34,462 nucleotides of DNA from a virus. The notes beneath the pieces were generated by a model. The model searched no databases and had not been told where the DNA came from. It was given only the letters and a program-made list of their open reading frames with translations. The stretch lies in UHGV virus genome UHGV-1637875; one strand, written 5' to 3'. Below are positions 1-34,435 of this stretch, in pieces (positions within the stretch are counted from its first letter, which is position 1; every line of letters starts with the position of its first letter). A program made the position numbers and the translations under genes.

Positions 1-506
1 TCCGATCTAGCGATACCGCCGCCACCGCCTCCTCCGCCACAAATTACTCCACCATTATTAATTCTTAACCGACCACCAATGTCATTTTGAATACAATGTC
101 CACCCTGTTGACCATTACCATCTCCACCAGAATGAGTCCATCCACCTTGTCCACCTCTGCCCCACATATGAGCTCCACCGCTAATATTCAACTGAACATA
201 TTCATTTGGTGTATCTCCATACATGAAGAATAAAGGAACATCTCTAGAATATGATACCAAATTTCCTGTGATATTAAACACTATAGGTGCACTACCTGCC
301 TCAAAACATCTATCTCGGAACCATTGACCATTGAAGTTATGGTCTGCTCCAAGCGTGTGAATAATTTCTCTTGAGCGACCTGCAAATTGACTCATCCAGC
401 AAGGAATACCCAATCTTAATTGACCAGCCGCTTGACTCATCCATCGTTGTCCTGTTTCATTTACGGATGAACTTCCAATCCAACCAGGAACACCAACTAC
501 TGCCAT
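1..506 (-). CDS. 38: Tail-fibre tip adhesin gp38, T2-type (partial; C-terminus runs off the window start)
   Basis: Minus-strand ATG at 506-504 with GGAG 6 nt upstream. My translation gives [63 protein letters not shown]...[30 protein letters not shown], matching the T2/K3/Ox2-type gp38 N-terminal domain followed by glycine-rich motifs. Lies directly downstream of gene 37. Confidence 0.85.
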
Positions 507-517
507 AATTTTCTCCA

Positions 518-534
518 AAGGGGCAAAGCCCCTT
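518..534 (-). promoter_or_regulatory. Intercistronic GC-rich hairpin between the gene 37 stop and the gene 38 ribosome-binding site
   Basis: Perfect palindrome aaggggc-aaa-gcccctt (7-bp stem, 3-nt loop) 4 nt after the gene 37 stop and just 5' of the GGAG for gene 38. No U-run follows, so probably an RNA stability or translational-coupling element rather than a terminator. Confidence 0.4.
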
Positions 535-538
535 GTTG

Positions 539-3505
539 TTAGAATTTAAAATAATTGCTAATTTTACGAGCAATTTTAGTGAAGAAAGGTGTTTTCAATT
601 CTTTAATTTCTTCACTCATTTCCTGAATAGCCTTAATTAAAAGAGCATTCACAGCAGAGTTAGAAATTGTCAGAACATCAGATCCATCAACTTCAACTTT
701 AGATACAGCTTCCGGTAATTCCTTTTCAAGGTCCTGAGCAATAATACCAACTTCACGTTTAATAACACTACGGTCTTTAATAGACTTAACTTTATCGTAA
801 ATATAAACTTTCAGTCGGCAAACTTTTTCGACCGCTCCATATTCTAATTCTTCTTTATTAATCTTGAGACGGGAGTCAGAACGAATATACACATCGCTAA
901 AGCTACCATTTCCTGGTGTATAAAAGAATCCATCATGATGGAATTCAAACACAGCTTGTGGGTGTTCAGCATCAGGAGAAGCCTCCGTGGATCCGACACG
1001 AATGATTGCTTGCCCCCACTGTGATGGAATACGACGCATACCAAAGTCAACAGCGGTGCTATATCCTTGATTGGTTATAACGCTTCTTGCTTTAAGAATA
1101 GGATAATAACATTCCTGTGAAACATAACCATGATCAACGAATAATGGAGCTTCTACTCGCCATTGGTTGCCCCAATCACCCGGTTGTCTAGCAATCCATC
1201 CAGAACCGTTAATGTGTACACGGTCACGGTTAACGTTAACCATTGCGGTATTTTGCGGGTTTAACGCAATCTCACCATTGTTTGTGATATGTACTGCCGC
1301 CTGAGAAGCATAGCTATAAAATGCTAGCGAATTATCAGCACCACCCTTACCAATATACCAGTTATTAGTCCCGTCTACGTCACCACGAATATACAAAGAA
1401 TTACTAGCAGGTGCTGATAATACAATAGAATCACCCGGACGTTTAATAATCAATCTACCATCGGATTCAACTTCACCAAAGAATTTAGTTTTAATTGCAC
1501 CAGTCGCTAAAGTACGTTCAGTAGAAAAATGAACTCCTTTGCTGTCTTCTAACTGAATAATGTTATCACGCGCATTATTACTATCACCCCAATGGTTAAA
1601 TTTAAAATAATCTCGTGATCCTAAACGTCCGGCGTCAAAAGTCATCAAGCCTTTTATATTAATATCACCACCAAAAAATGCGGTGAGAGAATCACGTTTT
1701 AATTTTAAAACGTTAGCACCACTAGTACCACCTAAAGTAACATCACCAGTTCTCAATTCATAACGGAAAGGTCTATTTGTATTAAAGTTTCCATCTTGAT
1801 CATCTTCGTCGGTGGAAAGAATATAAAGACTCTCTCCATCATTACGGAAAAATGTACCAAATTTTCCGCCATACAGGCGGAACGCATTCAATGCGCGAAA
1901 TTTAACTTCTGTATTAAAAGTTGTAGTTGATTTAAACGTGGTTGCAGCACCGAAGTTAACTGCGCCATTAAAATCTTGCTGCGCTGTCCATTTGTGGCGA
2001 CCATCTTCAAGAACAACACGACGAACTGTGCAAGTTCTATTTCCTGAATTACCGAATACACGAACGACAAAATAACGGTCGTTTGTCTGGGATACAGTAC
2101 CGCGCCAAACCTGAACAGTGCGCCCTGTGCTAGTATGTTCGCTAGGACCGACAGAAAACATAACCAAGTTTCCATTAATCGTCCCCCAATCCATATTTGC
2201 TGGCATGTTCTTTATTTTATTCAAAGGAACGCTAAACATACTACCAGGGACAAAATCAAAGGTTTGCCAATCTAACTCCGCTAATTGAGCTTTAATACCA
2301 CCCATACCCAAAGTAATTGGCAGAGAATAAGATGTATATACTTCGTTCCATGCACCCCAAACACCGCCGGTATATGCGCGCTCAAAAATACGATCGCGGG
2401 TAGTTGCACCCGTTCCGGCAGTAGTAAATTTTTGGAAAATAGCACCGCCAGAAGCACGCTGTTTAACTTCCAGCAAACCAACAATAACAGTCGGCAAACC
2501 TTCACCGGTAGGACAGTTAATAACGGCATCAGTGCCTAAAATATTATATAACCCAGGAGTTTTAAAATCATTCAGATCTCCATCATAAAAAGTCGCTGGT
2601 GTGACATTACCGACTTGTTGCCACGGTCCCCATTTAGGCGCAGAAGCATCCCACGCAGCAGCAAGACAGCGAGTATAAACAACACCAAATCTGGTCGTAT
2701 ATCTCTGTGTGCGAGAATAGTTTCCACCTTCATATACTTCTAAAAGTCCTTGAGCTGACGACCCCTCTTCTGGGAAATTTCTGTCAAAGGTAGCAATAGA
2801 ATTTGAACTATTTCGCCACAAACCAAAGTGTTCAGCGCCTCCTAGATCATTAAGATCAATTGTTGTTGACAGTGGACGAGTACCGGATTGAATATTTCGC
2901 CACACACTCCACGGACCATTTACTCCGTTCCATGTAGCAGTCAAGGAACGAATATAAACATTTCCGTATCTAGTTGTATATCTCTGAGTACCAGCAAATT
3001 GACCGGCCACAAATACTTCTAGCACACCTACAGCATTTTCTTCTGGAAATTTATTTGCTGGTTGAGCGTTGGTTGAAGTTGCTTTCGACCAAACACCAAG
3101 ATATTCTTCAACAGGCCCATACTCATCTAAATTAGCATCAACAGGTAATTCGCCATTATTTTTTATAAATGTTGTGCTATTGACATTTATGTCAGATGGA
3201 GTTAGCGTGATATCCTTTGACCCATCAAAGGATATACCATTAATTTTTCGTGCTGTTTTTAATTTCGTTGCAGTTGCAGCGTTACCTGTTAAATTTCCAA
3301 TTATATTTCCATTAACAGTTAAAGAACCATCAATTGTTCCTCCATATTTTAAACCTAATTCTATAACACTACCTGAGTCATCTTTTGTGAAAATTGTTTT
3401 ATCTTTTAAGTTTATAGCCAATTCACCTTCGGCTAATACTGAAGCAGCAGGACGTTGACCTGCAGTTTTGCTTCTTTTAAATTGTATTTGTTTTAAAGTA
3501 GCCAT
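539..3505 (-). CDS. 37: Long tail fibre distal subunit gp37 with C-terminal intramolecular chaperone domain
   Basis: 988-aa ORF. N-terminus [35 protein letters not shown] is the conserved gp37 N-terminus. The last ~113 aa (from [12 protein letters not shown]..., about 542-880) look like the self-cleaving intramolecular chaperone found in endosialidase-type tail fibres. The T4-type His-box tip is absent. Confidence 0.9.
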
Positions 3506-3513
3506 AAGTCCTC

Positions 3514-4164
3514 TTAATAATAGCCGAAATCTTGAACAGAATCCTTAATTACGATTTGGTCAAATCGTGGAACGTGTGAAGGTTGAGATGCAGGATTCTG
3601 TGAAAAAAGGTTTGGCGCAGTTAAATTTCCTGTCATAGTGTCTCCAGAGCGTAATACCCTAGAGTTTGCATTTGTTGTAACAGTATTTATTGCTCCATCA
3701 ACATAATCTTTACGAGTAACATCAGATGCTGCGGAAGGAGTAGATGTAACAGTTACAGATGGAGCCGTTACAGCCCTGGTAAATGTTGTCAAACCTTCTG
3801 GTGTAATAGTAATTTGTCCAGTAGTGATTTCACTACCTGCAGGTCTAAAACTAATACCGCCGGAAGAGCCACCAACTACAAGAGTATTACCGGTACCGCC
3901 ACCAGAACGAATTCGAATGGGGGTTTCATTATTACTTAATTGAAGATAACTATTTACCCCGTAATTAATAGTAATTGGACCGGTGTAAGTACCACCATTA
4001 GCTTTAGAAACGAAATCGTTATCAGCTGCCTGCGGTTTATTATATTCTGAATATATTTTAAATGATTTGTAGAGTACATCGTCACCGGCTGAATTCAATG
4101 GAAAATTTCCTTGATGCCAAATGACAGATCCACCTACAGTTGAACCTACTTTTAAATCAGCCAT
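3514..4164 (-). CDS. 36: Long tail fibre distal connector gp36
   Basis: 216-aa ORF (T4 gp36 is about 221 aa) between genes 35 and 37; start [12 protein letters not shown]; GAGGA ribosome-binding site; preceded by a late promoter. Confidence 0.85.
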
Positions 4165-4187
4165 TATATGCCCCTTTATTTTAATAT

Positions 4188-4195
4188 TATTTATA
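4188..4195 (-). promoter_or_regulatory. T4-type late promoter (TATAAATA) for gene 36
   Basis: Minus strand reads TATAAATA about 25 nt upstream of the gene 36 ATG, immediately after the gene 35 terminator hairpin. Confidence 0.6.
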
Positions 4196-4203
4196 AAGAA
4201 AAA

Positions 4204-4221
4204 GGGAACCCGAAGGCTCCC
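4204..4221 (-). terminator. Hairpin terminator after gene 35 (UUCG tetraloop)
   Basis: Minus-strand RNA GGGAGCC-UUCG-GGUUCCC (7-bp stem with one G-U pair) followed by UUUUUCUUU; sits 5 nt after the gene 35 stop. Confidence 0.6.
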
Positions 4222-4226
4222 TCAGT

Positions 4227-5342
4227 TTAAACTTCTCTAAATTCTTGCCCAAACACTTTGCCAGTTTTAGAAGAGGCTTGTGTAGGAAGTACCATTATAT
4301 CTGGAGGTGAAGCCGATTCGCAGACATAATTAACGCGAATACCGTTGACGCCAAATTCGGCAGGTTTTGAAATGCCGCCATTTCTTGATACTTCAGAAAA
4401 GCTTAAATTTCTCATGCCGCCTTGACCTGCTTGGGCAGTTCTTTGTGCATATATCGTAAATCCTACTGCATTTTCAGGAACAACTACATAATCTTCTTTT
4501 AATTCCCAAGACCCAGCTTGCCCAGTAAACTCAGCTTGGGTCGAGGAAATATATCCATTTGATGCATCATAAAAACGAATAGATATATTTGTAGTTCCAA
4601 GATCAAGTAAATCAGCATCAGCATATAGTTGTGCTTTAAGATAAAGAACATCACCAGGAATTAAATTGTAGTCAGAAAGTTTACTTATAGCAGCTGAAGT
4701 TGGCAATCGCGCAATTTCATTATTAGTTCCTCCAACCGCAGACATAAATTGCTCAACGCTTTCGTATGTTCTTTTAGGAAATCCTGTAGCTCCGACGTCT
4801 TCTAAACTATCAAATACAACATCTAACATAGTTTGATAGTCATCTGTGCTTTTTCTATTACTTAGTTTAACATGCTCTAATGCGATAGCTCTTTTAGAAG
4901 AAGTGTAAAAAGCAGCATATGACACGTCAAATCTTGACAATACTGAATCTGATGGAAAAACTGAAGTTCCTGCTCCCCTTAACCAAGATACCACTTCAGG
5001 AGGAAAATTAACCTTTCCGCTAGTTAATATAGCAACAAGTCTATTGTTTGACAAAGAATTCATGAAACTGACAAAAGCGGCAGATGTTGTATTGTTTGAA
5101 GCAGAAAAAGCATATGACTTGCTATCAACTAATGCTCCCGTAGAAGGGTCAAAAACTCTTAAATGAAGACCTGCACTAAATGTTTGATTTCCAACGGGAT
5201 TATCCTGAAATTTAACATATGGTCCCGCAGTAGAAAGCGGGCAAGAACCCGCTATGCTTATTTTATATCTTACTGAATTGCTTTCCGATAAAAATGGCGT
5301 TTGGACATATCCTTGTCCAAACTCTGCCATAAATTTTTCCAT
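4227..5342 (-). CDS. 35: Long tail fibre hinge/connector gp35
   Basis: 371-aa ORF (T4 gp35 is about 372 aa) between genes 34 and 36; AGAGG ribosome-binding site. Confidence 0.85.
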   Translation of the reverse strand: MEKFMAEFGQGYVQTPFLSESNSVRYKISIAGSCPLSTAGPYVKFQDNPVGNQTFSAGLHLRVFDPSTGALVDSKSYAFSASNNTTSAAFVSFMNSLSNNRLVAILTSGKVNFPPEVVSWLRGAGTSVFPSDSVLSRFDVSYAAFYTSSKRAIALEHVKLSNRKSTDDYQTMLDVVFDSLEDVGATGFPKRTYESVEQFMSAVGGTNNEIARLPTSAAISKLSDYNLIPGDVLYLKAQLYADADLLDLGTTNISIRFYDASNGYISSTQAEFTGQAGSWELKEDYVVVPENAVGFTIYAQRTAQAGQGGMRNLSFSEVSRNGGISKPAEFGVNGIRVNYVCESASPPDIMVLPTQASSKTGKVFGQEFREV

Positions 5343-5350
5343 AATACCTC

Positions 5351-8300
5351 TTATTCAATCCACTCAAATTTAACAGTTTTATTCACTGGGTCAGGAATAA
5401 TGCGAACATTACCAATTCGCAAGAAATCGCGAATAGTAAGATTACCTATTATTCCATTATCAGATGGGATCGCTCCTATATCTGAAGGTTGAGGAGGGTT
5501 ACCTCCGTCAAATACCTGAACAAAACTTGACCAAGAATTTTTAGTTTTCTGCCATGTACGTGTCCAGCGAGTGGTACGTGCTTCTGGGGTCGTTGGATAA
5601 GTAATCCAATCTTGGTAAAGTGAATCAAGTGTGTTACCAAACTGAGTCAATGTACCAGGAGATTTAACTTCTTCACCACGCTCCAAATAAGGAAGTCCAG
5701 TAACTTCGCTAGTTTTTTCAACCATTTTAAAATAACCTGGGAACTGGTTATAAGTAGCTGAATCATTAATATCAATTGACCAGAATCCTACAGTATCAGG
5801 TGTTGGCGCACGGGTATATAAATCAGAGGTTTTAGTACCCTGAGAACGAATTCTCGAGTTAACAGTCAAACCACCTGAATTTATAGTAGCACCTTTGGCG
5901 ATGATTAAGCTTTCACCAATCGTTACTTGACCAGATGCATTATTAATAGCTAATGGACGTAATCCATTAAATCCGCCACTCTGATCACCCGATGCAGTGA
6001 GCATAAAATTCGTTACTGACCCGTCATTGCGAACAATGAAACCATAATTTCCGTTAATAGCACGGAAAGCATTTGCGCTTCGAGAAATAATTTCACCAGT
6101 TGCAGTGACTGAATTACCAAATGTTGCTACACCATTTGCATTCAATGTTCCTGAAGCATTAACATTTATCGGTGTTACTGTGCCGTTGATATTAAATGTT
6201 ATATTTCCAGCTTTATTACGCTGAGAATAAAAATGACTAGACGTTTCATCACTAACTTCAAATACGGTAGAACGTGTTGTGTCTGATTCCCCGCTAAATT
6301 GATTTCCCCACACTCTGACTGTCATCGTTTGAGCTGGGTTCGTCCCAGTTTGAGGTCCTTTTTCAAAAATCAGACGAGTTGCCGTTCCAGTATTAGAAAT
6401 AGTTAGTGTACTATTTGCTGAAACTGATCCACCAAACGTAGCAGTACTAGATGATACAAGAGGGGCACTCAGGTTCGTTTGTTTGGTTAAGGTTAGTGAA
6501 CCATTAACTGTCTGGGCAATATCCCTACGAATGAACTGAGATGAATCTAGACCATCTAATAAATTTGCGTCAGCAGCTTTTGCTTTTAACGGCAAATAAT
6601 TTGCTAATACACGGTTTAATTCATATGGTGATACTGCATAACCATTTTTCTCATATAGTTCTAAGTCCTGCGTAGAACCAGCTGTATCATTACCAACGAA
6701 CGTAATTGAACCAGATGAGGTTTTAACAAAACCTCTTATCGCAGTAGTAGCTGCCCAAGTAGGTTCACTCTGCACAATCCATTTTAAATTTTTTGGAGAT
6801 ACAGCAGTATTTGCTGACGTTCCAGTCACGGTTTCAGACTGAGTTGCAACTTTAATAACACCTTCTTGCGATTCGGTAGATTTAGTACCTAAAAGCTTTT
6901 TAGGAGTTATTAAAACATTATCTAATTTTCCTGCAGCAGCTTCAACTTGTGTAGCTACACGAAGTGTACCACGTTGTGTCTCATTTGCTTCAAGAATATT
7001 AAGGGTATAATGGTCCCAGAGAGTTCCTGATTCAACTAATCCAGATAGAGCAACAACAGAAGTACGATCAGTACTATTAAATCTAGTTTTAATTTTTAAT
7101 GGTGTAGAGATACGAGTATCGTCGACGCCTGCGTCGAATTCAACTTGTGTAGCAATTTCAGCTATACCACTTAAACTTTCAGTTGCTCTACGGTTATTTA
7201 AAGTTTTAGGAGTGACTGCGCGAGTATAATCAGTTCCTGTATTAACTTCACTTTGCGTAGCAATTTCAATTAAACCAATTCTTCTATCAGTTGATGTCTT
7301 TTTATGTAACGTTTCTGGCGTTACAACCGCATTTGCCCATCCTTCTTGGCTTTGTCCAGCAATTACTTCACTTTCAACTGCTAAAATTACTGCACCTTGC
7401 TGTGTTGGAGTAGCTTTATACTGATCCAGTGCTTTAGGCGAAACAACTAAATTATTAGTGTTTTTATTGTAAACATTTGTACCATTTAATTCACGACTAG
7501 AAGCTGGGGTAGCTCCTGCGGTAGATACAAAAGTTACAATACCTGATAATGATTCAGAACCTTGACGAGCTTGAAGCTTTTTAGGAGTGATGATTGTAGT
7601 ATCATCGATACCTGTATTAGTTTCCTGCTGCGTAGCAATTTCAGCAACACCTCTACGAGTTTCTGTAGCAGTTCTTTCATTCAGCTTTTTAGGAGTGATG
7701 ATAAGGTCATCAGCAAAAGAGAATGTAGTGTTCTGATTTACTTGAGCAGTAGTTGCTATTCTTGCGATACCTCTACGAGTTTCTGTAGCAGTACGGTTAG
7801 CTAATGTTTCTGGAGTAATTGCTAATTCTTTTTGTGGAGAATTTTCTAAATCGACGTTAGCTTGGGCTTGTGTAGCTAAAGCAATTACGCCTAATCTTGC
7901 TCTAGTAGAATTATTTAAAGAATCGACTCTTTCAACTGTTGGAACGTTTTGTTGTACTACCCAGTATTTTCCGTCAGAATCTTCAATATAAGCAAGCTGT
8001 AAAACTGGAACATAATTAGTTTCACCGTTAAAAACTAATTCTTGAACAGTCACCCATTCAGCTTCAGGTTGATATTCTGAGCGTTTTGGGAATTGCAGCA
8101 ATTGAACTGAAGAAGCAATTTTATCTTCACCGGCAGCTTTGATTTTAACTGTTTGTCCTTTTCTCATGTAATTCATGGAAATTTTAACAGTATCACCAAC
8201 AGAAATATTAGTTGGAAGCTGAAGTTCAATCGTTTGAGTTGTTCCATTATTCGCACCAAATACCATAACTTCTTCATTTGGACGAATGTTTGAATTAGTC

Positions 8301-9220
8301 GTTATAATGCGTAAACGTGCTTTACTATCCCCGTCAAACAATCTCCATAATTTTTCACTATCATCAAACATCAAGAAACCGTCAATCGATGTACGGCCTT
8401 CAATGGAATGAGTTCCAACTTCTTGTACTGAAGTTGTTTCATCATATGTCGTGACAATTGTATGATAAAGTGGATTTAATTTATCTAAATCAACGAAATT
8501 AATAATATCGCCATGATTAGCAAATCTCGGAAGTTTAATATTAATCGGCGCTGCGGAAGTAAATCTACGCACGATAAAATCATTAGATTGTGCTTGATAT
8601 GCAGTCGATGGAGTAACAATTGCAGCTTCTCTGCTATAATCAGCAACATACATTTGCCACAAACGATTATTAAAAATGAATATCATCTGTGACTTTGGAT
8701 GAGTCATTAAAACTGAACGTACTTGTTCACCTCTAAAATTAACAATGCTCTGATTTGAAGAACTTATTTTAACCTGATTTATACCAGGTTTTCCACCGAT
8801 ATCTTGAATTATTACTGTTTCTCCATCGAGCGGAGAAGGTGGTAAAGTAAACTCAATGTCATTACCAACTGATGTATCTACTGAAATTGCTTTTCCGGAT
8901 TTTAATTGATATGGTCCAGATGATACAGTTGTATATACGGCATCAGTACGTAATGCTTTCCAACGAATTCTATTAAAATTTCCAGCAGGTTTTGGAATAT
9001 TATCCGTTGCTGCCCAAAAACGATTATTATAAATGATTACAAAATCTTTTAAATATCCACGAGTTGGATCATATTGCTGAACTGTGTTTTCTTGAATTAA
9101 GTAATCAACGTTAACACCGTCAGTTCCTACGGTACGATCAGCTAAAGCTACGTTGATTATTTTATCGCCACCTGCGTCCAGACCATCTTCTGCTCTGAAC
9201 TTTCTTTTAATCTCGGCCAT
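5351..9220 (-). CDS. 34: Long tail fibre proximal subunit gp34
   Basis: 1289-aa ORF, the same length as T4 gp34; contains multiple ~40-aa fibre repeats (TExxxG...ATQ...TPKxL); preceded by a late promoter. Confidence 0.9.
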   Translation of the reverse strand: MAEIKRKFRAEDGLDAGGDKIINVALADRTVGTDGVNVDYLIQENTVQQYDPTRGYLKDFVIIYNNRFWAATDNIPKPAGNFNRIRWKALRTDAVYTTVSSGPYQLKSGKAISVDTSVGNDIEFTLPPSPLDGETVIIQDIGGKPGINQVKISSSNQSIVNFRGEQVRSVLMTHPKSQMIFIFNNRLWQMYVADYSREAAIVTPSTAYQAQSNDFIVRRFTSAAPINIKLPRFANHGDIINFVDLDKLNPLYHTIVTTYDETTSVQEVGTHSIEGRTSIDGFLMFDDSEKLWRLFDGDSKARLRIITTNSNIRPNEEVMVFGANNGTTQTIELQLPTNISVGDTVKISMNYMRKGQTVKIKAAGEDKIASSVQLLQFPKRSEYQPEAEWVTVQELVFNGETNYVPVLQLAYIEDSDGKYWVVQQNVPTVERVDSLNNSTRARLGVIALATQAQANVDLENSPQKELAITPETLANRTATETRRGIARIATTAQVNQNTTFSFADDLIITPKKLNERTATETRRGVAEIATQQETNTGIDDTTIITPKKLQARQGSESLSGIVTFVSTAGATPASSRELNGTNVYNKNTNNLVVSPKALDQYKATPTQQGAVILAVESEVIAGQSQEGWANAVVTPETLHKKTSTDRRIGLIEIATQSEVNTGTDYTRAVTPKTLNNRRATESLSGIAEIATQVEFDAGVDDTRISTPLKIKTRFNSTDRTSVVALSGLVESGTLWDHYTLNILEANETQRGTLRVATQVEAAAGKLDNVLITPKKLLGTKSTESQEGVIKVATQSETVTGTSANTAVSPKNLKWIVQSEPTWAATTAIRGFVKTSSGSITFVGNDTAGSTQDLELYEKNGYAVSPYELNRVLANYLPLKAKAADANLLDGLDSSQFIRRDIAQTVNGSLTLTKQTNLSAPLVSSSTATFGGSVSANSTLTISNTGTATRLIFEKGPQTGTNPAQTMTVRVWGNQFSGESDTTRSTVFEVSDETSSHFYSQRNKAGNITFNINGTVTPINVNASGTLNANGVATFGNSVTATGEIISRSANAFRAINGNYGFIVRNDGSVTNFMLTASGDQSGGFNGLRPLAINNASGQVTIGESLIIAKGATINSGGLTVNSRIRSQGTKTSDLYTRAPTPDTVGFWSIDINDSATYNQFPGYFKMVEKTSEVTGLPYLERGEEVKSPGTLTQFGNTLDSLYQDWITYPTTPEARTTRWTRTWQKTKNSWSSFVQVFDGGNPPQPSDIGAIPSDNGIIGNLTIRDFLRIGNVRIIPDPVNKTVKFEWIE
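7570..7800 (-). repeat. Tandem direct DNA repeats (about 110-120-bp period) inside gene 34
   Basis: Perfect 24-bp repeat acctctacgagtttctgtagcagt at 7649-7672 and 7769-7792; agctttttaggagtgatgat at about 7574-7593 and 7683-7702. These encode the repeated fibre motif. Confidence 0.7.
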
Positions 9221-9254: not shown

Positions 9255-9262
9255 TATTTATA
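9255..9262 (-). promoter_or_regulatory. T4-type late promoter (TATAAATA) for gene 34
   Basis: Minus strand reads TATAAATA about 35 nt upstream of the gene 34 ATG (9220). Confidence 0.6.
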
Positions 9263-11487: not shown

Positions 11488-12117
11488 ATGAATATAGTAT
11501 ATTGGTTTACATTTGAAGACCGTGTCAAAAATAAGACTCCGCCATACTACTATATCGGTAGTAAATTAAATTGCTCATTTGAGAACGGAATAATATATGA
11601 CTCTTCCAGAAAGGAATACTGGAGCTCATGTAAACAAAAAAGATTTTTGAATGCGCTAATGCTTCAAAAACCGAGCGTTAAAATAATTCAAATTGATGAT
11701 GACTTGGATGTTATTGAAGCAGAACGAAAATACCAACTTGAAGTAAATGCCAGAGATAATCCAGACTATTTTAATCTGGTATATGCTGGTGGTGGATTTG
11801 GTGTGAGTGGTGAAACTCATCCAGCCAAAGACCCGGAAGTTAGAGAGCATATGAGATTGGCTAATTATATGAACCGTGACGATTTTAGACCTTGGAAAAC
11901 ATCACGAGCTAATATAGAGTCTTGGAAATTATCTCATATTGCTTACGAGAATTATGTGTTATTATCCTCTAATCTGTACGGTAAAACTCCTGGATGGCGA
12001 AGAGTTAAAGGTAATATAAATATAACTGATACAACTGCTAAATCGATGGTAAAGTATTTCAACTCAGGTTGGATACCTCTCGAAGACCCAGAGTATTGCG
12101 AATTATGCCAGCTATGA
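11488..12117 (+). CDS. segG: Putative GIY-YIG-family homing endonuclease (SegG-like, between genes 59 and 32)
   Basis: 209-aa ORF with N-terminal IVYWFTF...YYYIGSK resembling a degenerate GIY...YIG module. It occupies the slot between genes 59 and 32 where T4 carries segG. Motif match is imperfect, so confidence is moderate. Confidence 0.5.
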   Translation: MNIVYWFTFEDRVKNKTPPYYYIGSKLNCSFENGIIYDSSRKEYWSSCKQKRFLNALMLQKPSVKIIQIDDDLDVIEAERKYQLEVNARDNPDYFNLVYAGGGFGVSGETHPAKDPEVREHMRLANYMNRDDFRPWKTSRANIESWKLSHIAYENYVLLSSNLYGKTPGWRRVKGNINITDTTAKSMVKYFNSGWIPLEDPEYCELCQL

Positions 12118-14465: not shown

Positions 14466-15292
<827 letters not shown>

Positions 15293-15312
15293 AATAACGC
15301 GTGGCGGAAAAT

Positions 15313-15660
15313 ATGAACTTTAATTATTACCCTATTCTATTAGAAAAAGACGCGAAACAACCAAAATGGCAGGGTCCTCAGTTTATTAAAGGCGTCTATC
15401 AATTAGTAGTTCCTAAAGACAAGATTTATAGTAGTTGTTTCACTGAATCCGCTTGCAGTATTTTCGGTAATAGTTCTCCGTATTGGAATTTTGATATAAA
15501 ACTGGATAGAAATATCGATATTTGGTTGAAAGCCATGGATATTGGCAATATTACGTTTGATGAGAATAATTATCATATTATTGGTCGCTTTTCTAAACGC
15601 GGTAAAGAATTATATTTCACTCCTGAAATCGAAAGAAAATTTGATGCTAAACCGTATTGA
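15313..15660 (+). CDS. Hypothetical protein encoded by an insertion between frd and td
   Basis: 115-aa ORF from the ATG at 15313 (MNFNYYPILLEKDAKQPKWQGPQF...); no motif recognised; weak ribosome-binding site. T4 has no gene here because frd and td overlap. Confidence 0.55.
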   Translation: MNFNYYPILLEKDAKQPKWQGPQFIKGVYQLVVPKDKIYSSCFTESACSIFGNSSPYWNFDIKLDRNIDIWLKAMDIGNITFDENNYHIIGRFSKRGKELYFTPEIERKFDAKPY

Positions 15661-15705: not shown

Positions 15706-16566
15706 ATGAAACAATACCAAGATTTAATTAAAGACATTTTTGAAAATGGCTATGAAACCGATGATCGAACAGGCACAGGAACAATTGCTTTGTTCGGTAC
15801 TAAATTACGCTGGGATTTAAGTAAAGGTTTTCCTGCAGTAACAACTAAAAAGCTCGCCTGGAAAGCTTGCATTGCTGAGCTACTTTGGTTTTTATCAGGA
15901 AGCACAAATGTCAATGATTTACGATTAATTCAGCATGATTCATTAATTCAAGGCAAAACAGTCTGGGATGAAAATTACGAAAATCAAGCAAAAGATTTAG
16001 GATACCACATCGGTGAACTTGGTCCAATTTATGGAAAACAATGGCGTGATTTTGGCGGTGTAGACCAAATTGTAGAAGTTATTGATCGTATTAAAAAACT
16101 GCCGAATGATAGGCGACAAATTGTTTCTGCGTGGAATCCAGCTGAACTTAAATATATGGCATTACCGCCTTGTCATATGTTCTATCAGTTTAATGTGCGT
16201 AATGGCTATTTGGATTTGCAGTGGTATCAACGATCAGTAGATGTTTTTCTTGGTCTTCCATTTAATATTGCATCATATGCTGCGTTAGTTCATATTGTAG
16301 CTAAGATGTGTAATCTTATTCCTGGAGATTTGATATTTTCTGGCGGTAATACTCATATCTATATGAATCACGTAGAACAATGTAAAGAAATTTTACGTCG
16401 TGAACCTAAAGAGCTTTGTGAACTGGTAATAGGCGGATTGCCTTATAAATTCCGTTATCTTTCTACTAAAGAACAATTGGAATACATTCTTAAACTCAGG
16501 CCTAAAGATTTCGTTCTCAAAGATTATCAGTCCCACGGTGTCTTGAAAGGAAAAATGGCGGTATAA
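15706..16566 (+). CDS. td: Thymidylate synthase, intronless
   Basis: 286 aa, MKQYQDLIKDIFENGYETDDRTGTGTIALFG...; uninterrupted ORF, so the group I intron and its endonuclease ORF seen in T4 td are absent. Confidence 0.95.
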   Translation: MKQYQDLIKDIFENGYETDDRTGTGTIALFGTKLRWDLSKGFPAVTTKKLAWKACIAELLWFLSGSTNVNDLRLIQHDSLIQGKTVWDENYENQAKDLGYHIGELGPIYGKQWRDFGGVDQIVEVIDRIKKLPNDRRQIVSAWNPAELKYMALPPCHMFYQFNVRNGYLDLQWYQRSVDVFLGLPFNIASYAALVHIVAKMCNLIPGDLIFSGGNTHIYMNHVEQCKEILRREPKELCELVIGGLPYKFRYLSTKEQLEYILKLRPKDFVLKDYQSHGVLKGKMAV

Positions 16567-17133: not shown

Positions 17134-19388
17134 TTAATGTTATCAAAAGTAGTGGTGTTTCTCAAAGCTTTGACCCGCAAAAAATTATTAAAGTTTTATC
17201 TTGGGCAGCTGAAGGAACATCTGTAGATCCTTATGAATTATATGAAAATATTAAATCATATCTCCGTGATGGAATGACCACTGATGACATTCAAACCATT
17301 GTAATTAAGGCTGCTGCGAATTCTATTTCAGTTGAAGAGCCTGATTATCAATATGTAGCTGCGCGCTGTTTAATGTTTGCTCTTCGTAAGCATGTTTATG
17401 GACAATATGAACCACGTTCATTTATTGACCATATTTCTTACTGCGTAAATGAAGGTAAATATGACCCTGAATTGTTGTCAAAATATTCAGCAGAAGAAAT
17501 TACATTTTTAGAATCAAAAATTAAGCACGAGCGGGATATGGAATTTACTTATTCCGGGGCGATGCAATTAAAAGAAAAATATCTAGTTAAAGATAAAACC
17601 ACCGGTCAAATTTATGAAACTCCACAGTTTGCATTTATGACTATTGGAATGGCATTGCATCAAGATGAACCTGTTGATAGATTAAAACATGTTATCCGTT
17701 TTTATGAAGCGGTATCTACTCGACAGATTTCATTACCAACTCCTATTATGGCTGGTTGCCGTACTCCAACTCGGCAGTTTAGTTCATGCGTTGTTATTGA
17801 GGCAGGTGATTCATTAAAGTCTATCAATAAGGCTTCCGCTTCAATTGTTGAATATATCTCTAAACGCGCTGGAATTGGTATTAACGTTGGTATGATTCGT
17901 GCTGAAGGTTCTAAGATTGGCATGGGTGAAGTACGCCATACTGGTGTTATTCCTTTTTGGAAACATTTTCAGACTGCTGTTAAATCATGCTCACAGGGTG
18001 GAATTCGTGGCGGCGCTGCTACTGCTTATTATCCTATTTGGCATTTGGAAGTTGAAAATCTTCTTGTTTTGAAAAATAACAAAGGCGTAGAAGAAAACCG
18101 CATTCGTCATATGGATTATGGTGTTCAACTGAATGATTTGATGATGGAACGTTTTGGAAAGAACGATTACATTACTTTGTTCAGTCCCCATGAAATGGGC
18201 GGAGAGCTTTATTATTCTTATTTTAAAGACCAAGACCGTTTCCGTGAATTATACGAAGCAGCAGAAAAAGACCCTAATATTCGTAAAAAGCGTATTAAAG
18301 CCCGTGAACTATTTGAATTGCTCATGACTGAACGCTCAGGAACAGCAAGGATTTATGTACAGTTCATTGATAATACGAATAACTATACTCCGTTTATTCG
18401 TGAAAAGGCACCTATTCGTCAGAGTAACTTGTGCTGTGAAATTGCTATTCCAACAAATGATGTGAATAGTCCTGATGCTGAAATTGGATTGTGTACTCTC
18501 TCTGCATTCGTACTGGATAATTTTGACTGGCAAGACCAAGATAAAATTAATGAATTGGCAGAAGTCCAGGTTCGTGCTCTTGATAATCTTTTGGATTACC
18601 AAGGATATCCAGTTCCTGAAGCAGAAAAAGCTAAAAAGCGTCGTAACCTCGGTGTAGGTGTTACTAACTATGCAGCTTGGTTGGCAAGTAACTTTGCTTC
18701 TTATGAAGATGCTAACGATTTAACACATGAACTATTTGAGAGATTACAGTATGGACTCATTAAAGCATCCATTAAACTCGCCAAAGAAAAAGGACCTTGT
18801 GAATATTATTCAGACACTCGTTGGTCTCGAGGCGAATTACCTATCGACTGGTACAATAAAAAGATTGACCAAATCGCAGCTCCAAAATACGTTTGTGACT
18901 GGTCGTCGCTGCGGGAAGACCTTAAGCTCTTTGGCATCCGTAATAGCACATTATCAGCACTTATGCCATGTGAGTCATCTTCCCAAGTTTCTAACAGTAC
19001 AAACGGTATCGAGCCTCCACGTGGACCAGTCTCTGTTAAAGAATCAAAAGAGGGCTCCTTTAATCAAGTCGTGCCCAATATTGAGCATAACATAGACCTC
19101 TATGATTATACATGGAAATTAGCTAAGAAAGGTAATAAACCTTATCTTACGCAGGTAGCTATTATGCTGAAATGGGTATGTCAATCAGCTTCAGCGAATA
19201 CATATTATGACCCACAGATTTTTCCAAAAGGAAAGGTTCCAATGTCAATAATGATTGATGATATGCTATACGGATGGTATTATGGCATTAAAAATTTCTA
19301 TTATCATAATACCCGCGATGGTTCTGGTACTGATGATTATGAAATAGAAACTCCAAAAGCTGAAGATTGCGCAGCGTGTAAATTGTAA
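17124..19388 (+). CDS. nrdA: Aerobic ribonucleotide reductase large subunit
   Basis: 754 aa, the same length as T4 NrdA; N-terminal ATP-cone and a conserved NLCCEI active-site region; GAGGA ribosome-binding site. Confidence 0.95.
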   Translation: MQLINVIKSSGVSQSFDPQKIIKVLSWAAEGTSVDPYELYENIKSYLRDGMTTDDIQTIVIKAAANSISVEEPDYQYVAARCLMFALRKHVYGQYEPRSFIDHISYCVNEGKYDPELLSKYSAEEITFLESKIKHERDMEFTYSGAMQLKEKYLVKDKTTGQIYETPQFAFMTIGMALHQDEPVDRLKHVIRFYEAVSTRQISLPTPIMAGCRTPTRQFSSCVVIEAGDSLKSINKASASIVEYISKRAGIGINVGMIRAEGSKIGMGEVRHTGVIPFWKHFQTAVKSCSQGGIRGGAATAYYPIWHLEVENLLVLKNNKGVEENRIRHMDYGVQLNDLMMERFGKNDYITLFSPHEMGGELYYSYFKDQDRFRELYEAAEKDPNIRKKRIKARELFELLMTERSGTARIYVQFIDNTNNYTPFIREKAPIRQSNLCCEIAIPTNDVNSPDAEIGLCTLSAFVLDNFDWQDQDKINELAEVQVRALDNLLDYQGYPVPEAEKAKKRRNLGVGVTNYAAWLASNFASYEDANDLTHELFERLQYGLIKASIKLAKEKGPCEYYSDTRWSRGELPIDWYNKKIDQIAAPKYVCDWSSLREDLKLFGIRNSTLSALMPCESSSQVSNSTNGIEPPRGPVSVKESKEGSFNQVVPNIEHNIDLYDYTWKLAKKGNKPYLTQVAIMLKWVCQSASANTYYDPQIFPKGKVPMSIMIDDMLYGWYYGIKNFYYHNTRDGSGTDDYEIETPKAEDCAACKL

Positions 19389-20029
19389 TGAATTATCAAA
19401 AAATCTATAATGACCTAATTTCCCGAGCTCAGGCTCGGGAACCTTTATCCGAATATAAAGAGACTCATCATATAATCCCTAGATGTATGGGAGGTTCTGA
19501 TGATAAAGAAAATTTAGTTGAATTAACAGGTAGAGAGCATTTTATAGCTCATTGGCTTTTATGCAAAATATATGACACCCCAGGATTAAAGAAAGCTTTT
19601 GGTTTAATGTGCTTGACTGGTAAAAATCGCTCATATAAAATTTCTTCTCAACTATACGAATTAGGTAGACGACGTTTATCTGAAGCTGCTGTAGGACGTG
19701 AAGTTTCTATAGAAACCAGGGAAAAGATAAGTAGAGCTCTTAAAGGAAGGAAATTTACCAAAGAGCATTTAGCTCGCATGAGAAAACCTAAAACCGAAGA
19801 AGCTAAAAAGAATATAGCTGCTGCTAAAGTCGGCGTGCTTAATCCGATGTATGGTACAATCTCTCCGACAAGAGATGTTCCTCATACTAAAGAAACTCGT
19901 GATTTGATTTCTTTGAGAACTAAGCAAAGTATAGAGTATCCGCCTTGTCCGCATTGTGGCAAGAAAGTTAATAAAGGCAATGCTCTAAGATGGCATTATG
20001 ATAAATGTAAATTTAAGGATTCTAAATGA
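19388..20029 (+). CDS. mobE: HNH-family homing endonuclease (MobE-like) inserted between nrdA and nrdB
   Basis: 213 aa; HNH motif HHIIPRCMGGSDDKENLVELTGREHFIAHW; C-terminal CPHCGK zinc-finger-like motif; start overlaps the nrdA stop (TAATG) and stop overlaps the nrdB start (ATGA). Confidence 0.65.
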   Translation: MNYQKIYNDLISRAQAREPLSEYKETHHIIPRCMGGSDDKENLVELTGREHFIAHWLLCKIYDTPGLKKAFGLMCLTGKNRSYKISSQLYELGRRRLSEAAVGREVSIETREKISRALKGRKFTKEHLARMRKPKTEEAKKNIAAAKVGVLNPMYGTISPTRDVPHTKETRDLISLRTKQSIEYPPCPHCGKKVNKGNALRWHYDKCKFKDSK

Positions 20030-21204
20030 GTACAGTTTTTAATACATCCCCTGTTAATATTTTGACTGAGCCGATGTTTTTTGGTTCTGGATTGGGTTTA
20101 GCTCGATATGATATTCAACGGCATAGAGTATTTGAAGAACTTATTGAGAAATCTTTATCATTTTTCTGGCGTCCTGAAGAAGTAAACTTAATGATGGATG
20201 CTGCACAGTTTAATAAGCTTCCTCAATATCAGCAGAATATTTTTACTAATAATCTGAAGTATCAATCACTTCTAGATAGCATTCAGGGTCGTGCACCGTC
20301 TGCTGTACTTATGTCATTGATTTCAGACCCAAGCCTTGATACATGGGTTGCTACATGGACTTTTAGTGAAACCATTCACAGTCGTTCATACACTCATATT
20401 ATGCGAAATCTTTATACTGATCCGTCAAAGGTATTTGATGAGATTGTATTAGATAAAGCTATCATGAAACGTGCTGAATCTATTGGTCGTTATTATGATG
20501 ATGTTCTGGACAAGACACGTATTTGGGAAAACGCCAAAGAAAACTTTAGTTATTTTGCTGAAAATGAATATGATTTAGAAGCATATTCAAACAGTCTCAC
20601 TCATTTGGAAGAATGTAAACGAGACCTGATGAAGTCGCTTTATCTCTGTCTGCACGTTATCAATGCTCTGGAAGCTATTCGTTTTTATGTATCCTTTGCA
20701 TGTACTTTCAACTTCCATAAGAACATGGAAATCATGGAAGGTAATGCGAAGATTATGAAATTTATTGCACGTGATGAGCAGCTTCATCTTAAAGGTACAC
20801 AATATATTATTCGTCAACTTCAATCCGGTACTGATGGTGATGAATGGGTTAAAATTGCCAAAGAGTGTGAACAAGAAGCAGTTGATATTTTCATGGAAGT
20901 TAACCGCCAAGAAAAAGATTGGGCAGTTCATTTATTTAAAGATGGCGATGTTCCTGGATTAAATACAAATAGCATGTGGAGCTTTATTGATTACTTAACT
21001 GTATCTCGTATGAAACAGTGTGGTCTTCCATGCCCGATTACCGATGCTCCGGTTAAACATCCATATCCTTGGATTCGTGAATACCTTAATTCTGATAATG
21101 TTCAATCCGCGCCGCAAGAAGTAGAACTGTCATCTTATCTTGTTGCACAGATTGATAATGATGTTGATGATAAAGTTATGATGAGTTTAAAAAAATATTT
21201 TTAA
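20026..21204 (+). CDS. nrdB: Aerobic ribonucleotide reductase small subunit, intronless
   Basis: 392-aa uninterrupted ORF, MSTVFNTSPVNILTEPMFFGSGLGLARYDIQRH...; no intron. Confidence 0.95.
   Translation: MSTVFNTSPVNILTEPMFFGSGLGLARYDIQRHRVFEELIEKSLSFFWRPEEVNLMMDAAQFNKLPQYQQNIFTNNLKYQSLLDSIQGRAPSAVLMSLISDPSLDTWVATWTFSETIHSRSYTHIMRNLYTDPSKVFDEIVLDKAIMKRAESIGRYYDDVLDKTRIWENAKENFSYFAENEYDLEAYSNSLTHLEECKRDLMKSLYLCLHVINALEAIRFYVSFACTFNFHKNMEIMEGNAKIMKFIARDEQLHLKGTQYIIRQLQSGTDGDEWVKIAKECEQEAVDIFMEVNRQEKDWAVHLFKDGDVPGLNTNSMWSFIDYLTVSRMKQCGLPCPITDAPVKHPYPWIREYLNSDNVQSAPQEVELSSYLVAQIDNDVDDKVMMSLKKYF

Positions 21205-24250: not shown

Positions 24251-24254
<4 letters not shown>
24024..24254 (+). CDS. 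Hypothetical protein
   Basis: 76-aa ORF, translationally coupled on both sides (ATGA overlaps). Confidence 0.6.
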
Positions 24255-25454
<1,200 letters not shown>

Positions 25455-26164: not shown

Positions 26165-26185
26165 AAACAAATGAGGAAATTGAAA

Positions 26186-26713
26186 ATGAGCGAATGGTTT
26201 GAAGAAGATAAGGTTTATCGCTTTAAAGCTGGATATAAAGATATTTTTAATGAAACTTGTGGGGCTAATAAACGAATTGCCCAGTTTATTGATGAAAATT
26301 CATTTAAAGTAAAAATTGATCCTGCGAAGAATGTTATTAGCATTAAACGTGAAATTGATGACTGTTGGTATAAAGCTGTTGATGTAATGGGCGAATGCTA
26401 TAAAGATAGCCCGTTATTTTCAATTACTTATATGTCAGAATATTATTTTTTCGAAGAAGTTCAAAAAGATGATTCTGTCAGTAAATTTGAAATTAAAACT
26501 GATAAAGAAATTAAGTGGAAAGTAGTAGGTATTACTGGTTGTATGTTCTATATCTATGCTCAAACTGATACGAAGGAAGAAGCTAAAAAGAAAGCTCTAG
26601 AATATCTTGAAGAGTATGAAGAAGGTCCGGTAATGATTACCCAAGATGCTGAATTAGTTTCTGTCAAATTAGTTAAAAACGTTGAAAGTAAGGAGCTAGG
26701 ATCAACATGCTAA
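26186..26713 (+). CDS. Hypothetical protein
   Basis: 175 aa from the ATG at 26186 with a GAGGAAA ribosome-binding site (an in-frame ATG at 26171 lacks one). Confidence 0.65.
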   Translation: MSEWFEEDKVYRFKAGYKDIFNETCGANKRIAQFIDENSFKVKIDPAKNVISIKREIDDCWYKAVDVMGECYKDSPLFSITYMSEYYFFEEVQKDDSVSKFEIKTDKEIKWKVVGITGCMFYIYAQTDTKEEAKKKALEYLEEYEEGPVMITQDAELVSVKLVKNVESKELGSTC

Positions 26714-29721: not shown

Positions 29722-30054
29722 ATGAAAACGATTAATCTGAACGCTGCAGTTAAAACTAAATGCTTCAATGGTAAATATGATGAAACTATGTGGTTCTTAA
29801 TGGCAGTTGAAGGTGATATTATTGAAGTAGAAACAACAGAAGGTATGGGAACAGATTTCACCTTTACAATTCAAGTTCATAATTTCTTTACTGGTTGGAT
29901 TTATGAATTGAATACAGTAATCGTTGGAAAAATTGAACAAAATGAATTAGGTGAATGGTATTATGTTACAGCCCGTCAACGTGCCGAACGCTTAATTGAG
30001 AAGATGAAAAAAGTTGGTAAACTTGACATGCAGCATTGGAAAGTAGTAAAATAA
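29722..30054 (+). CDS. Hypothetical protein
   Basis: 110-aa ORF with an AGGAGA ribosome-binding site. Confidence 0.65.
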   Translation: MKTINLNAAVKTKCFNGKYDETMWFLMAVEGDIIEVETTEGMGTDFTFTIQVHNFFTGWIYELNTVIVGKIEQNELGEWYYVTARQRAERLIEKMKKVGKLDMQHWKVVK

Positions 30055-31215: not shown

Positions 31216-31666
31216 GTTAGAGATAAGAAGCAATTTCAAATGGCCATCATGCGCATTAAGTAATTTCGCCCAATGGCCTTTTGTTATGGATGGTATCCAA
31301 TTTGGAGGTCTTGAAGGATTTCTCCAAGGATGTAAGGTGAAAAATGTTGAACAGCAGCGTCGTGTATTTGGGTTATCCGGGCTTGCCGCCCAACAAGCTG
31401 GAAGGTCTTATGCTAGAGCTCAGGACCGTGGGACCCTCTTCTGGCTCGGAGTTCCGTTTTCAAGATACTCTCCAGCGTGGAAAGAATTATACACAAATGC
31501 GTATTTTGAGGCAGCGATTCAAAACAAGGGCTTTCGTGATGCATTACAAGCCTCGAAAGGAAAAGTTTTGAAGCACAGCATGGCTAGTAGTCTAACAAAA
31601 GATGATACAATACTAACCGAAGCTGAATTTATTGATGTGTTAAACCTATTAAGAGACTCTCTATGA
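31208..31666 (+). CDS. NADAR-family (YbiA-like) protein, putative ADP-ribose/N-glycosidic hydrolase
   Basis: 152 aa from the ATG at 31208. N-terminal SNF...WPF...DG...F...GCK resembles the YbiA/NADAR signature. Seventh of the nine ORFs between rIII and gene 30, positionally equivalent to T4 30.3. Confidence 0.6.
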   Translation: MPELEIRSNFKWPSCALSNFAQWPFVMDGIQFGGLEGFLQGCKVKNVEQQRRVFGLSGLAAQQAGRSYARAQDRGTLFWLGVPFSRYSPAWKELYTNAYFEAAIQNKGFRDALQASKGKVLKHSMASSLTKDDTILTEAEFIDVLNLLRDSL

Positions 31667-34413: not shown

Positions 34414-34435
34414 AGGCCTTCGGGCCTTTAATTTT
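34413..34435 (+). terminator. Hairpin terminator (UUCG tetraloop) at the end of the early ligase transcription unit
   Basis: aaggcc-ttcg-ggcctt followed by taatttt; could terminate in both directions. Confidence 0.55.

Follow-up and report, generated by a model that had tools for sequence, protein, structure and literature searches.

Does this phage recognise its host with the C-terminal tip of gp37, in the T4-type arrangement where gp38 is an assembly chaperone only and is absent from the virion, or with a gp38 adhesin carried on the end of gp37? The window, by which we mean the whole stretch of 34,462 nucleotides analysed here (UHGV virus genome UHGV-1637875), begins within the genes that bear on this question. 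Very probably, these genes form the distal end of a long-tail-fibre operon (36-37-38, with a late promoter) in an adhesin-tip Tequatrovirus, and their products would work by a mechanism of four steps that we describe below.

The genes lie on the minus strand in the order 36-37-38. Gene 36 (3514..4164; 216 aa, Pfam Phage_T4_gp36) is the first gene of the late transcription unit, and its product is 100% identical to gp36 of Shigella phage ESh25 and 66% identical to that of T4. Upstream of gene 36 is a T4-type late promoter box, TATAAATA (4188..4195, minus strand), preceded by a terminator-like UUCG hairpin after gene 35 (4223-4202, minus strand). The same arrangement of terminator and late promoter is annotated in fPS-2. 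Gene 37 (539-3505, minus strand) is an ORF of 988 aa. Gene 38 starts 32 bases past the gene 37 stop codon, with its ATG at 506..504, and the spacer between the two genes (507..538, minus strand) contains a GGAG ribosome-binding site for gene 38 (513-516) and a GC-rich hairpin, AAGGGGC-UUU-GCCCCUU in RNA (518-534). Compared with shuffled sequence, this hairpin is not significant alone (MFE -14.9 kcal/mol, z -1.33). T4, T2, S16, fFiEco06 and fPS-2 all have a hairpin of differing sequence at the equivalent 37-38 position, and only this conserved position argues for a role.

gp37 matches phrog_1699 ("long tail fiber protein distal subunit") from end to end (PHROG, E 6e-227). The mature protein, residues 1-875 (881..3505, minus strand), would make up the distal half-fibre. 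It begins with a conserved gp36-joining N-terminus (residues 1-66; 3308-3505, minus strand) and carries a Gp34_trimer-like domain (residues 506-581) and a gp37_trimer domain (residues 698-749), both from Pfam. What these genes have in common with T4, and what could be taken to favour a T4-type tip, is the map position of 37 and 38 and a set of backbone proteins 97-100% identical to those of T4. The backbone proteins are equally close to T2, so the statement that the rest of the window is nearly T4-identical holds as to the degree of identity and fails as to T4 in particular; the backbone is best read as generic Tequatrovirus. The fibre proteins themselves depart from T4. A good match between gp37 and its T4 counterpart is confined to the first 66 residues (79%), and the one other match, over 454-592, is at 22%. 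HxH motifs number eight in T4 gp37, seven of them within residues 883-998, and there are none in the gp37 of the window. The gene 38 fragment has no BLASTP match to T4 gp38 at E 1e-3, and Pfam assigns adhesin families and an S74 chaperone instead. A T4-type tip is refuted by the lack of HxH motifs and of similarity to T4 gp38, and we give it next to no probability, in agreement with the sequence-only reading, which had set this phage apart from T4 on both its His-box tip and its gp38 chaperone.

The last 113 of the 988 residues of gp37, from S876 to the stop codon (542..880, minus strand), lie downstream of the Gp34_trimer and gp37_trimer domains and form a C-terminal intramolecular chaperone of the Peptidase_S74 type. 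A self-cleaving-type chaperone domain of about this length had been proposed at exactly these coordinates. Peptidase_S74 (PF13884) matches residues 876-934 with 39.7 bits (E 6e-10, model positions 1-57 of 58) against a curated Pfam cut-off of 22 bits; this match and those of the gene 38 fragment are far above chance. Autocleavage is predicted between R875 and S876, in DVYIR^SDSRLK, with S876 (window 878-880) and K881 (863-865) as the predicted catalytic residues. S-D-x-R-x-K also opens the last 113 residues in T6, fPS-2 and fFiEco06, and in S16 it lies 112 residues from the end. A homologue search using the C-terminal 200 residues of gp37 yielded 23 proteins, mostly fragments, that gave shallow alignments; 22 of the 23 carry Peptidase_S74 in precomputed annotation. 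Among 22 aligned homologues, S876 and K881 are nearly invariant or invariant, and the surrounding NDVYIRSDxRLKIN is nearly invariant. The two residues align with the site DLNVS^SDRRIKK of S16 gp37, whose cleavage was mapped experimentally and releases a chaperone of 113 residues, and cleavage has been predicted at DVYIR^SDGRLKI in the fPS phages (PMC7917993).

One could instead suppose that the S74-like domain has no catalytic activity and stays on gp37 as a relic, with gp38 attached elsewhere or not forming the tip. The structure models of the chaperone region, whose family has a fold of beta-hairpins and a long C-terminal helix making a trimeric coiled coil, leave some room for this, as both AlphaFold models, from shallow alignments, are of low confidence (mean pLDDT 46 and 51) and fold matches obtained from them are supportive only. 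In a PDB profile search with this region, only S16 gp37 was significant (E 2e-6), MyRF and 8jov being weak. Against a relic stand a dyad and surroundings that hardly vary across homologues and that align with the mapped S16 site, and the tryptophan prongs of gp38, which need an exposed tip, are conserved as well. We consider a relic very unlikely and prefer a chaperone that would cut itself off. Endosialidase-type chaperones (K1F endoNF 3GW6, GA-1 3GUD, T5 pb1 4UW8 and MyRF ICA 7DC3) share 8-19% sequence identity with it, and differ in that the end exposed here would serve for the docking of another protein, the adhesin, and would not be the functional tip itself.

That adhesin would be the product of gene 38, of which the window holds codons 1-166 of 266 (9..506, minus strand); the ORF then runs off the left end of the window. 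Its identification as a glycine-rich adhesin is borne out by GP38 (PF05268; 161.7 bits, E 3e-47) and Gp38_N (PF21721; 72.8 bits, E 2e-20), for which the curated Pfam cut-off is 25 each, by phrog_2056 ("tail fiber protein; host specificity"; E 3e-82), and by PDB matches to gp38 of PP01 (9v85, 1e-58) and S16 (6f45_D, 3e-38). Aligned with S16 gp38, the N-terminal attachment domain comprises residues 1-45 (372..506, minus strand) and includes W9 (480-482), W22 (441-443) and W37 (396-398), all three of which are in conserved columns. In the gp37-gp38 tip complex of S16 (Dunne et al. 2018, as described in PMC6851490 and PMC7917993), the three N-terminal tryptophans of gp38 plug into the gp37 tip (PMC6851490). 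The likeness of S16 (PDB 6F45) lies in its gp37, a trimer whose C-terminal chaperone is autocleaved at the Ser of S-D-x-R-x-K, and in its gp38, a monomer that combines a beta-helix, a polyglycine-II sandwich and three Trp prongs. S16 differs in having a shorter gp37 (749 aa) and in sequence: the gp38 fragment is about 48% identical, the gp37 chaperone region 29%. S16 belongs to the genus Gelderlandvirus and its receptor is Salmonella OmpC. By analogy with S16, T6, RB32 and PP01, gp38 would sit at the fibre tip of the virion and act as the receptor determinant.

The first polyglycine extension of gp38 (99..161, minus strand) consists of GRGGQGG (residues 116-122), the loop WTHSGGDGN (123-131) and GQQGG (132-136). 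From the alignments, this stretch is the start of the first hypervariable segment (HVS1) and is equivalent to distal receptor-binding loop 1 of S16 gp38, between polyglycine helices 1 and 2 of that protein. An insertion of 5 residues sets the loop apart from those of T6, T2, S16, fPS-2 and PP01, and the loop is identical in RB32, ESh25 and fFiEco06. In the numbering of PMC12032242, where the reference adhesin is fFiEco06 gp38, HVS1 covers aa 122-158; we found no receptor of fFiEco06 stated in that paper. HVS1 is therefore inside the window, and the earlier claim that the hypervariable segments of gp38 lie beyond its edge holds for HVS2-4. The glycine-rich string quoted in support of that claim's adhesin corresponds to residues 135-164 approximately (window 15-104) and ends with a (Gly)8 run, residues 157-164 (15..38, minus strand), equivalent to polyglycine-II helix 3 of S16 (151-GGGGGGGG-158; PMC6851490). 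The contig breaks two codons past this run.

Is gene 38 then truly truncated or disrupted, a pseudogene or the end of the genome? The ORF does leave the sequence after 166 codons, and the two codons that follow (RS) are absent from all relatives. The bases responsible, window 1..8, read TCCGATCT, or AGATCGGA on the minus strand. We take AGATCGGA to be the start of an Illumina adapter, and the eight bases to be a non-phage remnant of it. At the junction, the window reads GGTATCGCT|AGATCGGA where ESh25 reads GGTATCGCT|TATCGTCC, and matching ends at position 9 in all GenBank relatives and in the public metagenome scaffold ERZ28587752 GEVE14-1 scaffold_28. Exact 30- and 40-mers from the window start had no match in viral, metagenome or genome contig collections because these first eight bases are adapter. 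Genuine gp38 sequence in the window thus comprises residues 1-166, and the final RS is not phage sequence. The last three bases at the other end of the window, AGA, also deviate from the scaffold. The scaffold is 100% identical to window 9-7505 (7,497 bases) and runs into an intact gene 38 of 266 aa, and the next gene carries Phage_holin_T (holin t). Against this evidence the probability of a truly truncated gene is practically negligible. The truncation is an assembly break with an adapter remnant rather than an arbitrary window edge. One improbable reason for the break in gene 38 is that more than one allele of HVS2-4 was present in the population sampled. The adapter remnants at the ends of the contig call for caution over data quality, and the last two "codons" of the fragment must not be mistaken for novel hypervariable sequence.

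The complete gene, which the sequence-only reading had wanted for comparison with adhesins of known receptor, has the glycine-rich and hypervariable architecture that was anticipated, judged by five glycine-rich motifs (GRM) alternating with four HVS and by the ten polyglycine-II helices of S16. GP38 covers model positions 1-218 of 218 at 229 bits (Pfam), further glycine-rich motifs follow (GGGGGRPFG, etc.), and the protein aligns with S16 gp38 over residues 5-263. Over its 266 aa, gp38 is 99.6% identical to gp38 of ESh25 and 97.4% identical to that of RB32, from which it differs at 7 positions; one of these is in HVS2, an N for K in SGA[N/K]WQDI.

To which branch of the adhesin-tip phages does this module belong? 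Window 1-3350 has no match of at least 100 bases to T4 or T2 DNA, and the module was therefore typed by protein and against T6 and RB32. T6-, T2- and K3-like subtypes of the "lock and key" between gp37 tip and gp38 attachment domain have been distinguished (Trojet et al. 2011). A T2 subtype was rejected, since the attachment domain is 62% identical to that of T2 and 98% to that of T6 (56% to that of PP01), and gp37 is 90.4% identical to T6 gp37 (AP018814) end to end. T6 also has the identical cleavage-site context SFSDVYIR^, a 113-residue chaperone and the same gene order, 36-37-38-t. T2 (AP018813) resembles this phage in having an adhesin gp38 and a gp37 with a C-terminal S-D-x-R-x-K domain, and is unlike it in gp38 (47%) and in a gp37 of 1341 aa that matches strongly only at its ends and weakly elsewhere. 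The matching parts are the first 67 residues and 852-975, the latter mainly chaperone domain at 41.6% identity. T2 and PP01 tip parts are reportedly incompatible, a barrier that is lifted by swapping the gp38 N-terminus (PMC12892980). The name "T2-type" given to the module in the sequence-only reading is correct in the generic sense of the literature and incorrect strictly. Beyond the attachment domain the likeness to T6 is lost. Residues 114-166 of gp38 are 70% identical to T6, with the 5-residue insertion noted above, and in the part beyond the window, T6 and ESh25 share 48% identity. The fragment as a whole, residues 1-166, is 100% identical to ESh25 gp38 and 97.6% identical to gp38 of RB32/RB33 (DQ904452), with an identical HVS1. 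The module is of the T6 subtype, with a T6-like gp37 and attachment domain and an RB32-like specificity domain.

The close relatives in GenBank are the Tequatroviruses ESh25, Escherichia phages ES12/ES26, and fFiEco06. DNA identity to ESh25 is 95.9% over window 9-3505, and gp37 is 94% identical to both ESh25 and fFiEco06. gp37 diverges from ESh25 in a recombinant distal patch, residues 701-900 (806-1405, minus strand), where block-wise identities are 58-84%. Up to residue 700 the protein is ESh25-like, at 751-800 fFiEco06 is the best match, and at 801-900 T6 is. The comparison suggests that the shaft just above the adhesin (~700-875) is a patchwork from three donors, ESh25-like, fFiEco06-like and T6-like. 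The fibre module had been called mosaic from its sequence, and this mosaicism extends into gp37 itself. Host range may be set by more than gp38 alone, and residues ~700-875 could be under diversifying selection through contact with LPS or O-antigen, but we regard this as improbable.

T6 uses Tsx as its receptor, and T2 uses FadL/OmpF. For the present phage, near-identity to the RB32 adhesin points to OmpA, with LPS dependence, as the most probable receptor. RB32 requires OmpA, shows LPS sensitivity and passes this specificity on to RB5 when its HVS segment is placed there (Trojet et al. 2011, PMC3157838); this is the only paper that our literature search on RB32-type adhesins found. The receptor can be predicted from adhesin phylogeny when the N-terminus is left out (PMC12032242). 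Of the records that match window 9-200 at 89.6% identity or more, all 32 carry a 3′ half of the RB32/ESh25 type. Nevertheless, OmpA is probable rather than certain, because one HVS2 residue (N, with K in RB32) differs and single HVS substitutions can alter receptor specificity (PMC3157838). These two points, together with a gp37 and gp38 attachment domain that resemble those of T6, are the grounds for thinking that the adhesin might bind something other than OmpA (Tsx, OmpC, OmpF or FadL, for example) despite its RB32-like sequence. Such a receptor seems unlikely, though it deserves some weight, given that the part of gp38 beyond the window is, in ESh25 (99.6% identical over the full gp38), 96% identical to RB32 and 48% to T6. 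The RB32 gp37 is a different protein for much of its length (1027 aa; 69% identity overall, 12-20% in blocks 701-850), so whatever gp37 may add to LPS sensitivity would not necessarily accompany OmpA recognition.

Taken by homology to these systems, assembly and function of the tip would proceed as follows. gp37 (988 aa) would trimerise, helped by its own 113-residue Peptidase_S74 intramolecular chaperone. Once the trimer has folded, the Ser876/Lys881 dyad would cut the Arg875-Ser876 bond, and the chaperone would leave, exposing a flat trimeric tip that ends in DVYIR. One monomer of gp38 (266 aa) would then dock on this tip through W9, W22 and W37 of its N-terminal helical domain. Finally, the polyglycine-II "sandwich" of gp38 would present its hypervariable loops to an outer-membrane protein, most probably OmpA, in an LPS-dependent manner.

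None of this architecture is new. Adhesin tips of relatives such as T6, RB32 and S16 are known at the level of sequence, genetic dissection and solved structure, and chaperone cleavage, the mode of docking and the hypervariable loops have already been described for S16, T6, RB32, PP01 and the fPS phages. Among T-even phages the adhesin type is the most common form of tip, and another instance matters little as a discovery. Its value is one of annotation: a T6-type gp37 paired with an adhesin of the RB32 type, for which OmpA is the probable receptor, may serve host-range prediction and supply parts for fibre engineering.

The window is a segment of a Tequatrovirus (T4-like) genome in the orientation opposite to the T4 map. 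The fibre genes lie on the minus strand: gene 38 (starting at 506 and continuing past the left end), gene 37 (539-3505, 988 aa), gene 36 (3514-4164), gene 35 (4227-5342) and gene 34 (5351-9220). From 9310 the plus strand carries rnh, dsbA, 33, 59, segG, 32, frd, td, nrdA, nrdB, denA, rnlA and others, through to DNA ligase. T4-type late promoter boxes (TATAAATA) stand upstream of gene 36 (4188-4195) and gene 34 (9255-9262). With a terminator-like UUCG hairpin after gene 35, the promoter before gene 36 makes genes 36-37-38 a late transcription unit, as they are likewise annotated in fPS-2. A GC-rich hairpin, AAGGGGC-UUU-GCCCCUU (518-534, minus strand), follows the stop codon of gene 37 and precedes the ribosome-binding site of gene 38. 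T4, T2, S16, fFiEco06 and fPS-2 have a hairpin of another sequence at this site, with a UUCG loop in T4 and T2; the fold energy of the 518-534 hairpin is not significant by itself (z -1.33).

The fibre tip encoded here consists of a gp37 with a C-terminal chaperone and a separate gp38 adhesin, as the sequence-only reading had proposed, and the Pfam and PHROGs families agree. gp37 matches the PHROGs family "long tail fiber protein distal subunit" from end to end, and residues 876-934 are Peptidase_S74 ("chaperone of endosialidase") by Pfam (39.7 bits against a cut-off of 22). The 12-residue string and domain of about 113 aa picked out earlier were accurately placed: the domain starts at S876 (878-880) and runs exactly 113 residues to the stop (window 542-880). 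In an alignment of 22 sequences NDVYIRSDxRLKIN hardly varies, and S876 and K881 are both conserved. The S-D-x-R-x-K motif lies 113 residues from the gp37 end in T6, fPS-2, fFiEco06 and ESh25, 112 in S16, 111 in PP01 and 99 in T2.

In S16 gp37, the last 113 residues form an intramolecular chaperone, whose autocleavage between the two serines in DLNVS^SDRRIKK exposes the gp38 docking surface (Salem et al., PMC7917993). For the fPS phages, cleavage is predicted after DVYIR, in DVYIR^SDGRLKI (PMC7917993); the window site reads DVYIR^SDSRLKI. The chaperone region aligns with the S16 gp37 chain in PDB 6F45 (E 0.001 with a single sequence, 2e-6 with a profile). AlphaFold models of this region were poor (pLDDT 46 and 51), though their only significant PDB matches in Foldseek were to the MyRF ICA domain. 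Judged by sequence, membership of the Peptidase_S74 chaperone family can be taken as established; the fold match is supporting evidence, and we infer that gp37 is autocleaved. One 303-aa E. coli database protein has Peptidase_S74, Gp38_N and GP38 together; the end of gene 37 may be read through into gene 38 or fused to it there, or the protein may be an artefact of gene calling.

The gp38 fragment (residues 1-166, window 9-506) matches Pfam GP38 (E 3e-47) and Gp38_N (E 2e-20), the PHROGs family "tail fiber protein; host specificity", and the solved gp38 structures of PP01 (9V85, E 1e-58) and S16 (6F45_D, E 3e-38). Three tryptophans of S16 gp38 plug into the gp37 tip (PMC6851490), and W9, W22 and W37 are their conserved counterparts in our alignment. 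The fragment contains GRGGQGG, a 14-residue loop, a 20-residue beta-helix turn and a (Gly)8 run, the counterpart of S16 polyglycine helix 3. The hypervariable segments had been thought to lie entirely beyond the window edge. This does not hold for the first of the four, HVS1 (distal loop 1 in S16 terms), which Lutz et al. (PMC12032242) number aa 122-158 and which falls within the window. Its loop is five residues longer than those of T6, T2, S16, fPS-2 and PP01, and is identical in RB32, ESh25 and fFiEco06.

The match to every relative ends at window position 9. Window 1-8, TCCGATCT, reads AGATCGGA on the coding (minus) strand, matching the opening 8 bases of the Illumina adapter. An exact protein look-up with gp37 led to the ENA metagenome scaffold ERZ28587752 GEVE14-1_SAMN02674966_METAG-scaffold_28 (169,953 bp), which matches window 9-7505 (7,497 bases, 0 mismatches) and 31265-34459 with 100% identity. 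The last three bases, AGA (34460-34462), differ from the scaffold and could again be the start of the adapter, although three bases are too few to say so. The window is probably an entire contig, its terminal adapter left untrimmed. Since it spans the scaffold ends, it looks like an independent, complete contig of this same phage that breaks off directly behind the (GGN)8 run in gene 38. From the scaffold comes gene 38 in full, with holin t as the next gene: its 266 aa span the Pfam GP38 model completely and are 99.6% identical to ESh25, 97.4% to RB32 and 67.7% to T6. Residues 58-112 of the fibre hinge protein gp35 match Pfam ILEI ("interleukin-like EMT inducer"; E 7e-8, passing the curated cut-off), a match also precomputed for gp35 of the identical scaffold.

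Attachment domains come in T6-, T2- and K3-like forms, each coupled to a matching gp37 C-terminus (Trojet et al., PMC3157838). The window domain is the T6 form, with 98% identity to that of T6 gp38; the window gp37 is 90.4% identical to T6 gp37 from end to end, and the context of the cleavage site does not differ. The label "T2-type" given earlier is apt in a generic sense, but not strictly, as T2 gp38 is only 47% identical, and T2 gp37 matches the window gp37 strongly only over the latter's first 67 residues and its residues 852-975 (41.6%, mainly chaperone domain). From HVS1 on, the adhesin is RB32-type by sequence comparison, the fragment being 97.6% identical to RB32. The tip is indeed unlike that of T4: the window gp37 has no HxH boxes, against eight in T4 gp37, and the gp38 fragment has no similarity to T4 gp38.

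The fibre module is mosaic, as had been suspected. Divergence from T4 and T2 starts in gene 36 (66% and 62%) and continues through gene 37 past codon 66 and the whole of gene 38. A finer mosaic lies within gp37: ESh25 is almost identical over residues 1-700, and the distal shaft, 701-900 (window 806-1405), is a patchwork, 58-84% identical to ESh25, with fFiEco06 the best match at 751-800 (96%) and T6 at 801-900 (98%). RB32, whose gp38 is nearly the same, has a gp37 with only 69% identity. That these genes are exchanged at T-even fibre loci is on record (PMC3157838; PMC7917993).

The proteins of the backbone show 97-100% identity to T4 (gp32 99.0%, RnlA 99.2%, DenA 99.3%), in line with the near-identity noted earlier, and T2 is equally close. 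At the DNA level, no GenBank phage exceeds about 96% identity over the backbone.

The backbone mixes T4-like and T2-like accessory genes (all on the plus strand where strand is given below). A 209-aa ORF in the gene 59/32 interval (11488-12117, plus) is 99% identical to the T4 homing endonuclease SegG; segG and ORF 29722-30054 are shared with T4 and absent from T2, segG being missing from T2 at this position. Small ORFs at 14466-14711, 15301-15660 and 24251-24553 (plus) are common to T2 (81-100%) and absent from the T4 stretch. T4 td and nrdB are interrupted by group I introns carrying I-TevI and I-TevIII, whereas td (15706-16566, plus, 286 aa) and nrdB (20026-21204, plus, 392 aa) are uninterrupted here, like in T2. 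Between nrdA and nrdB, where T2 has nothing, a 213-aa ORF (19388-20029, plus) has HNH and NUMOD3 motifs and belongs to phrog_655 (homing endonuclease); T4 mobE gives no DNA match to its first ~390 bases, and over its last 78 residues it shares 97% identity with the T4 nrdB.1 region. A 180-aa ORF (26171-26713, plus) belongs to phrog_3710 (unknown function), with no Pfam match and no counterpart in the compared T4 and T2 stretches.

The finding is correct and ordinary. Architecture, cleavage site, docking mode and hypervariable-loop logic have all been published for close relatives, and GenBank has near-identical proteins. What is usefully added is the subtype, a T6-type gp37 and attachment domain with an RB32-type adhesin, along with the adapter at the first 8 bases, the full gene 38 from the identical scaffold, and a probable receptor. 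RB32 depends on OmpA and is affected by the composition of the LPS, and moving its HVS block into RB5 transferred that specificity (PMC3157838). Each of the 32 GenBank records that match window 9-200 at 89.6% identity or more also has the RB32/ESh25-type 3' half. Together with the near-identity to RB32 gp38, these points predict OmpA as the probable receptor. Our confidence is moderate, because the full gp38 differs from RB32 at one HVS2 residue and a change at a single HVS position can alter specificity (PMC3157838).
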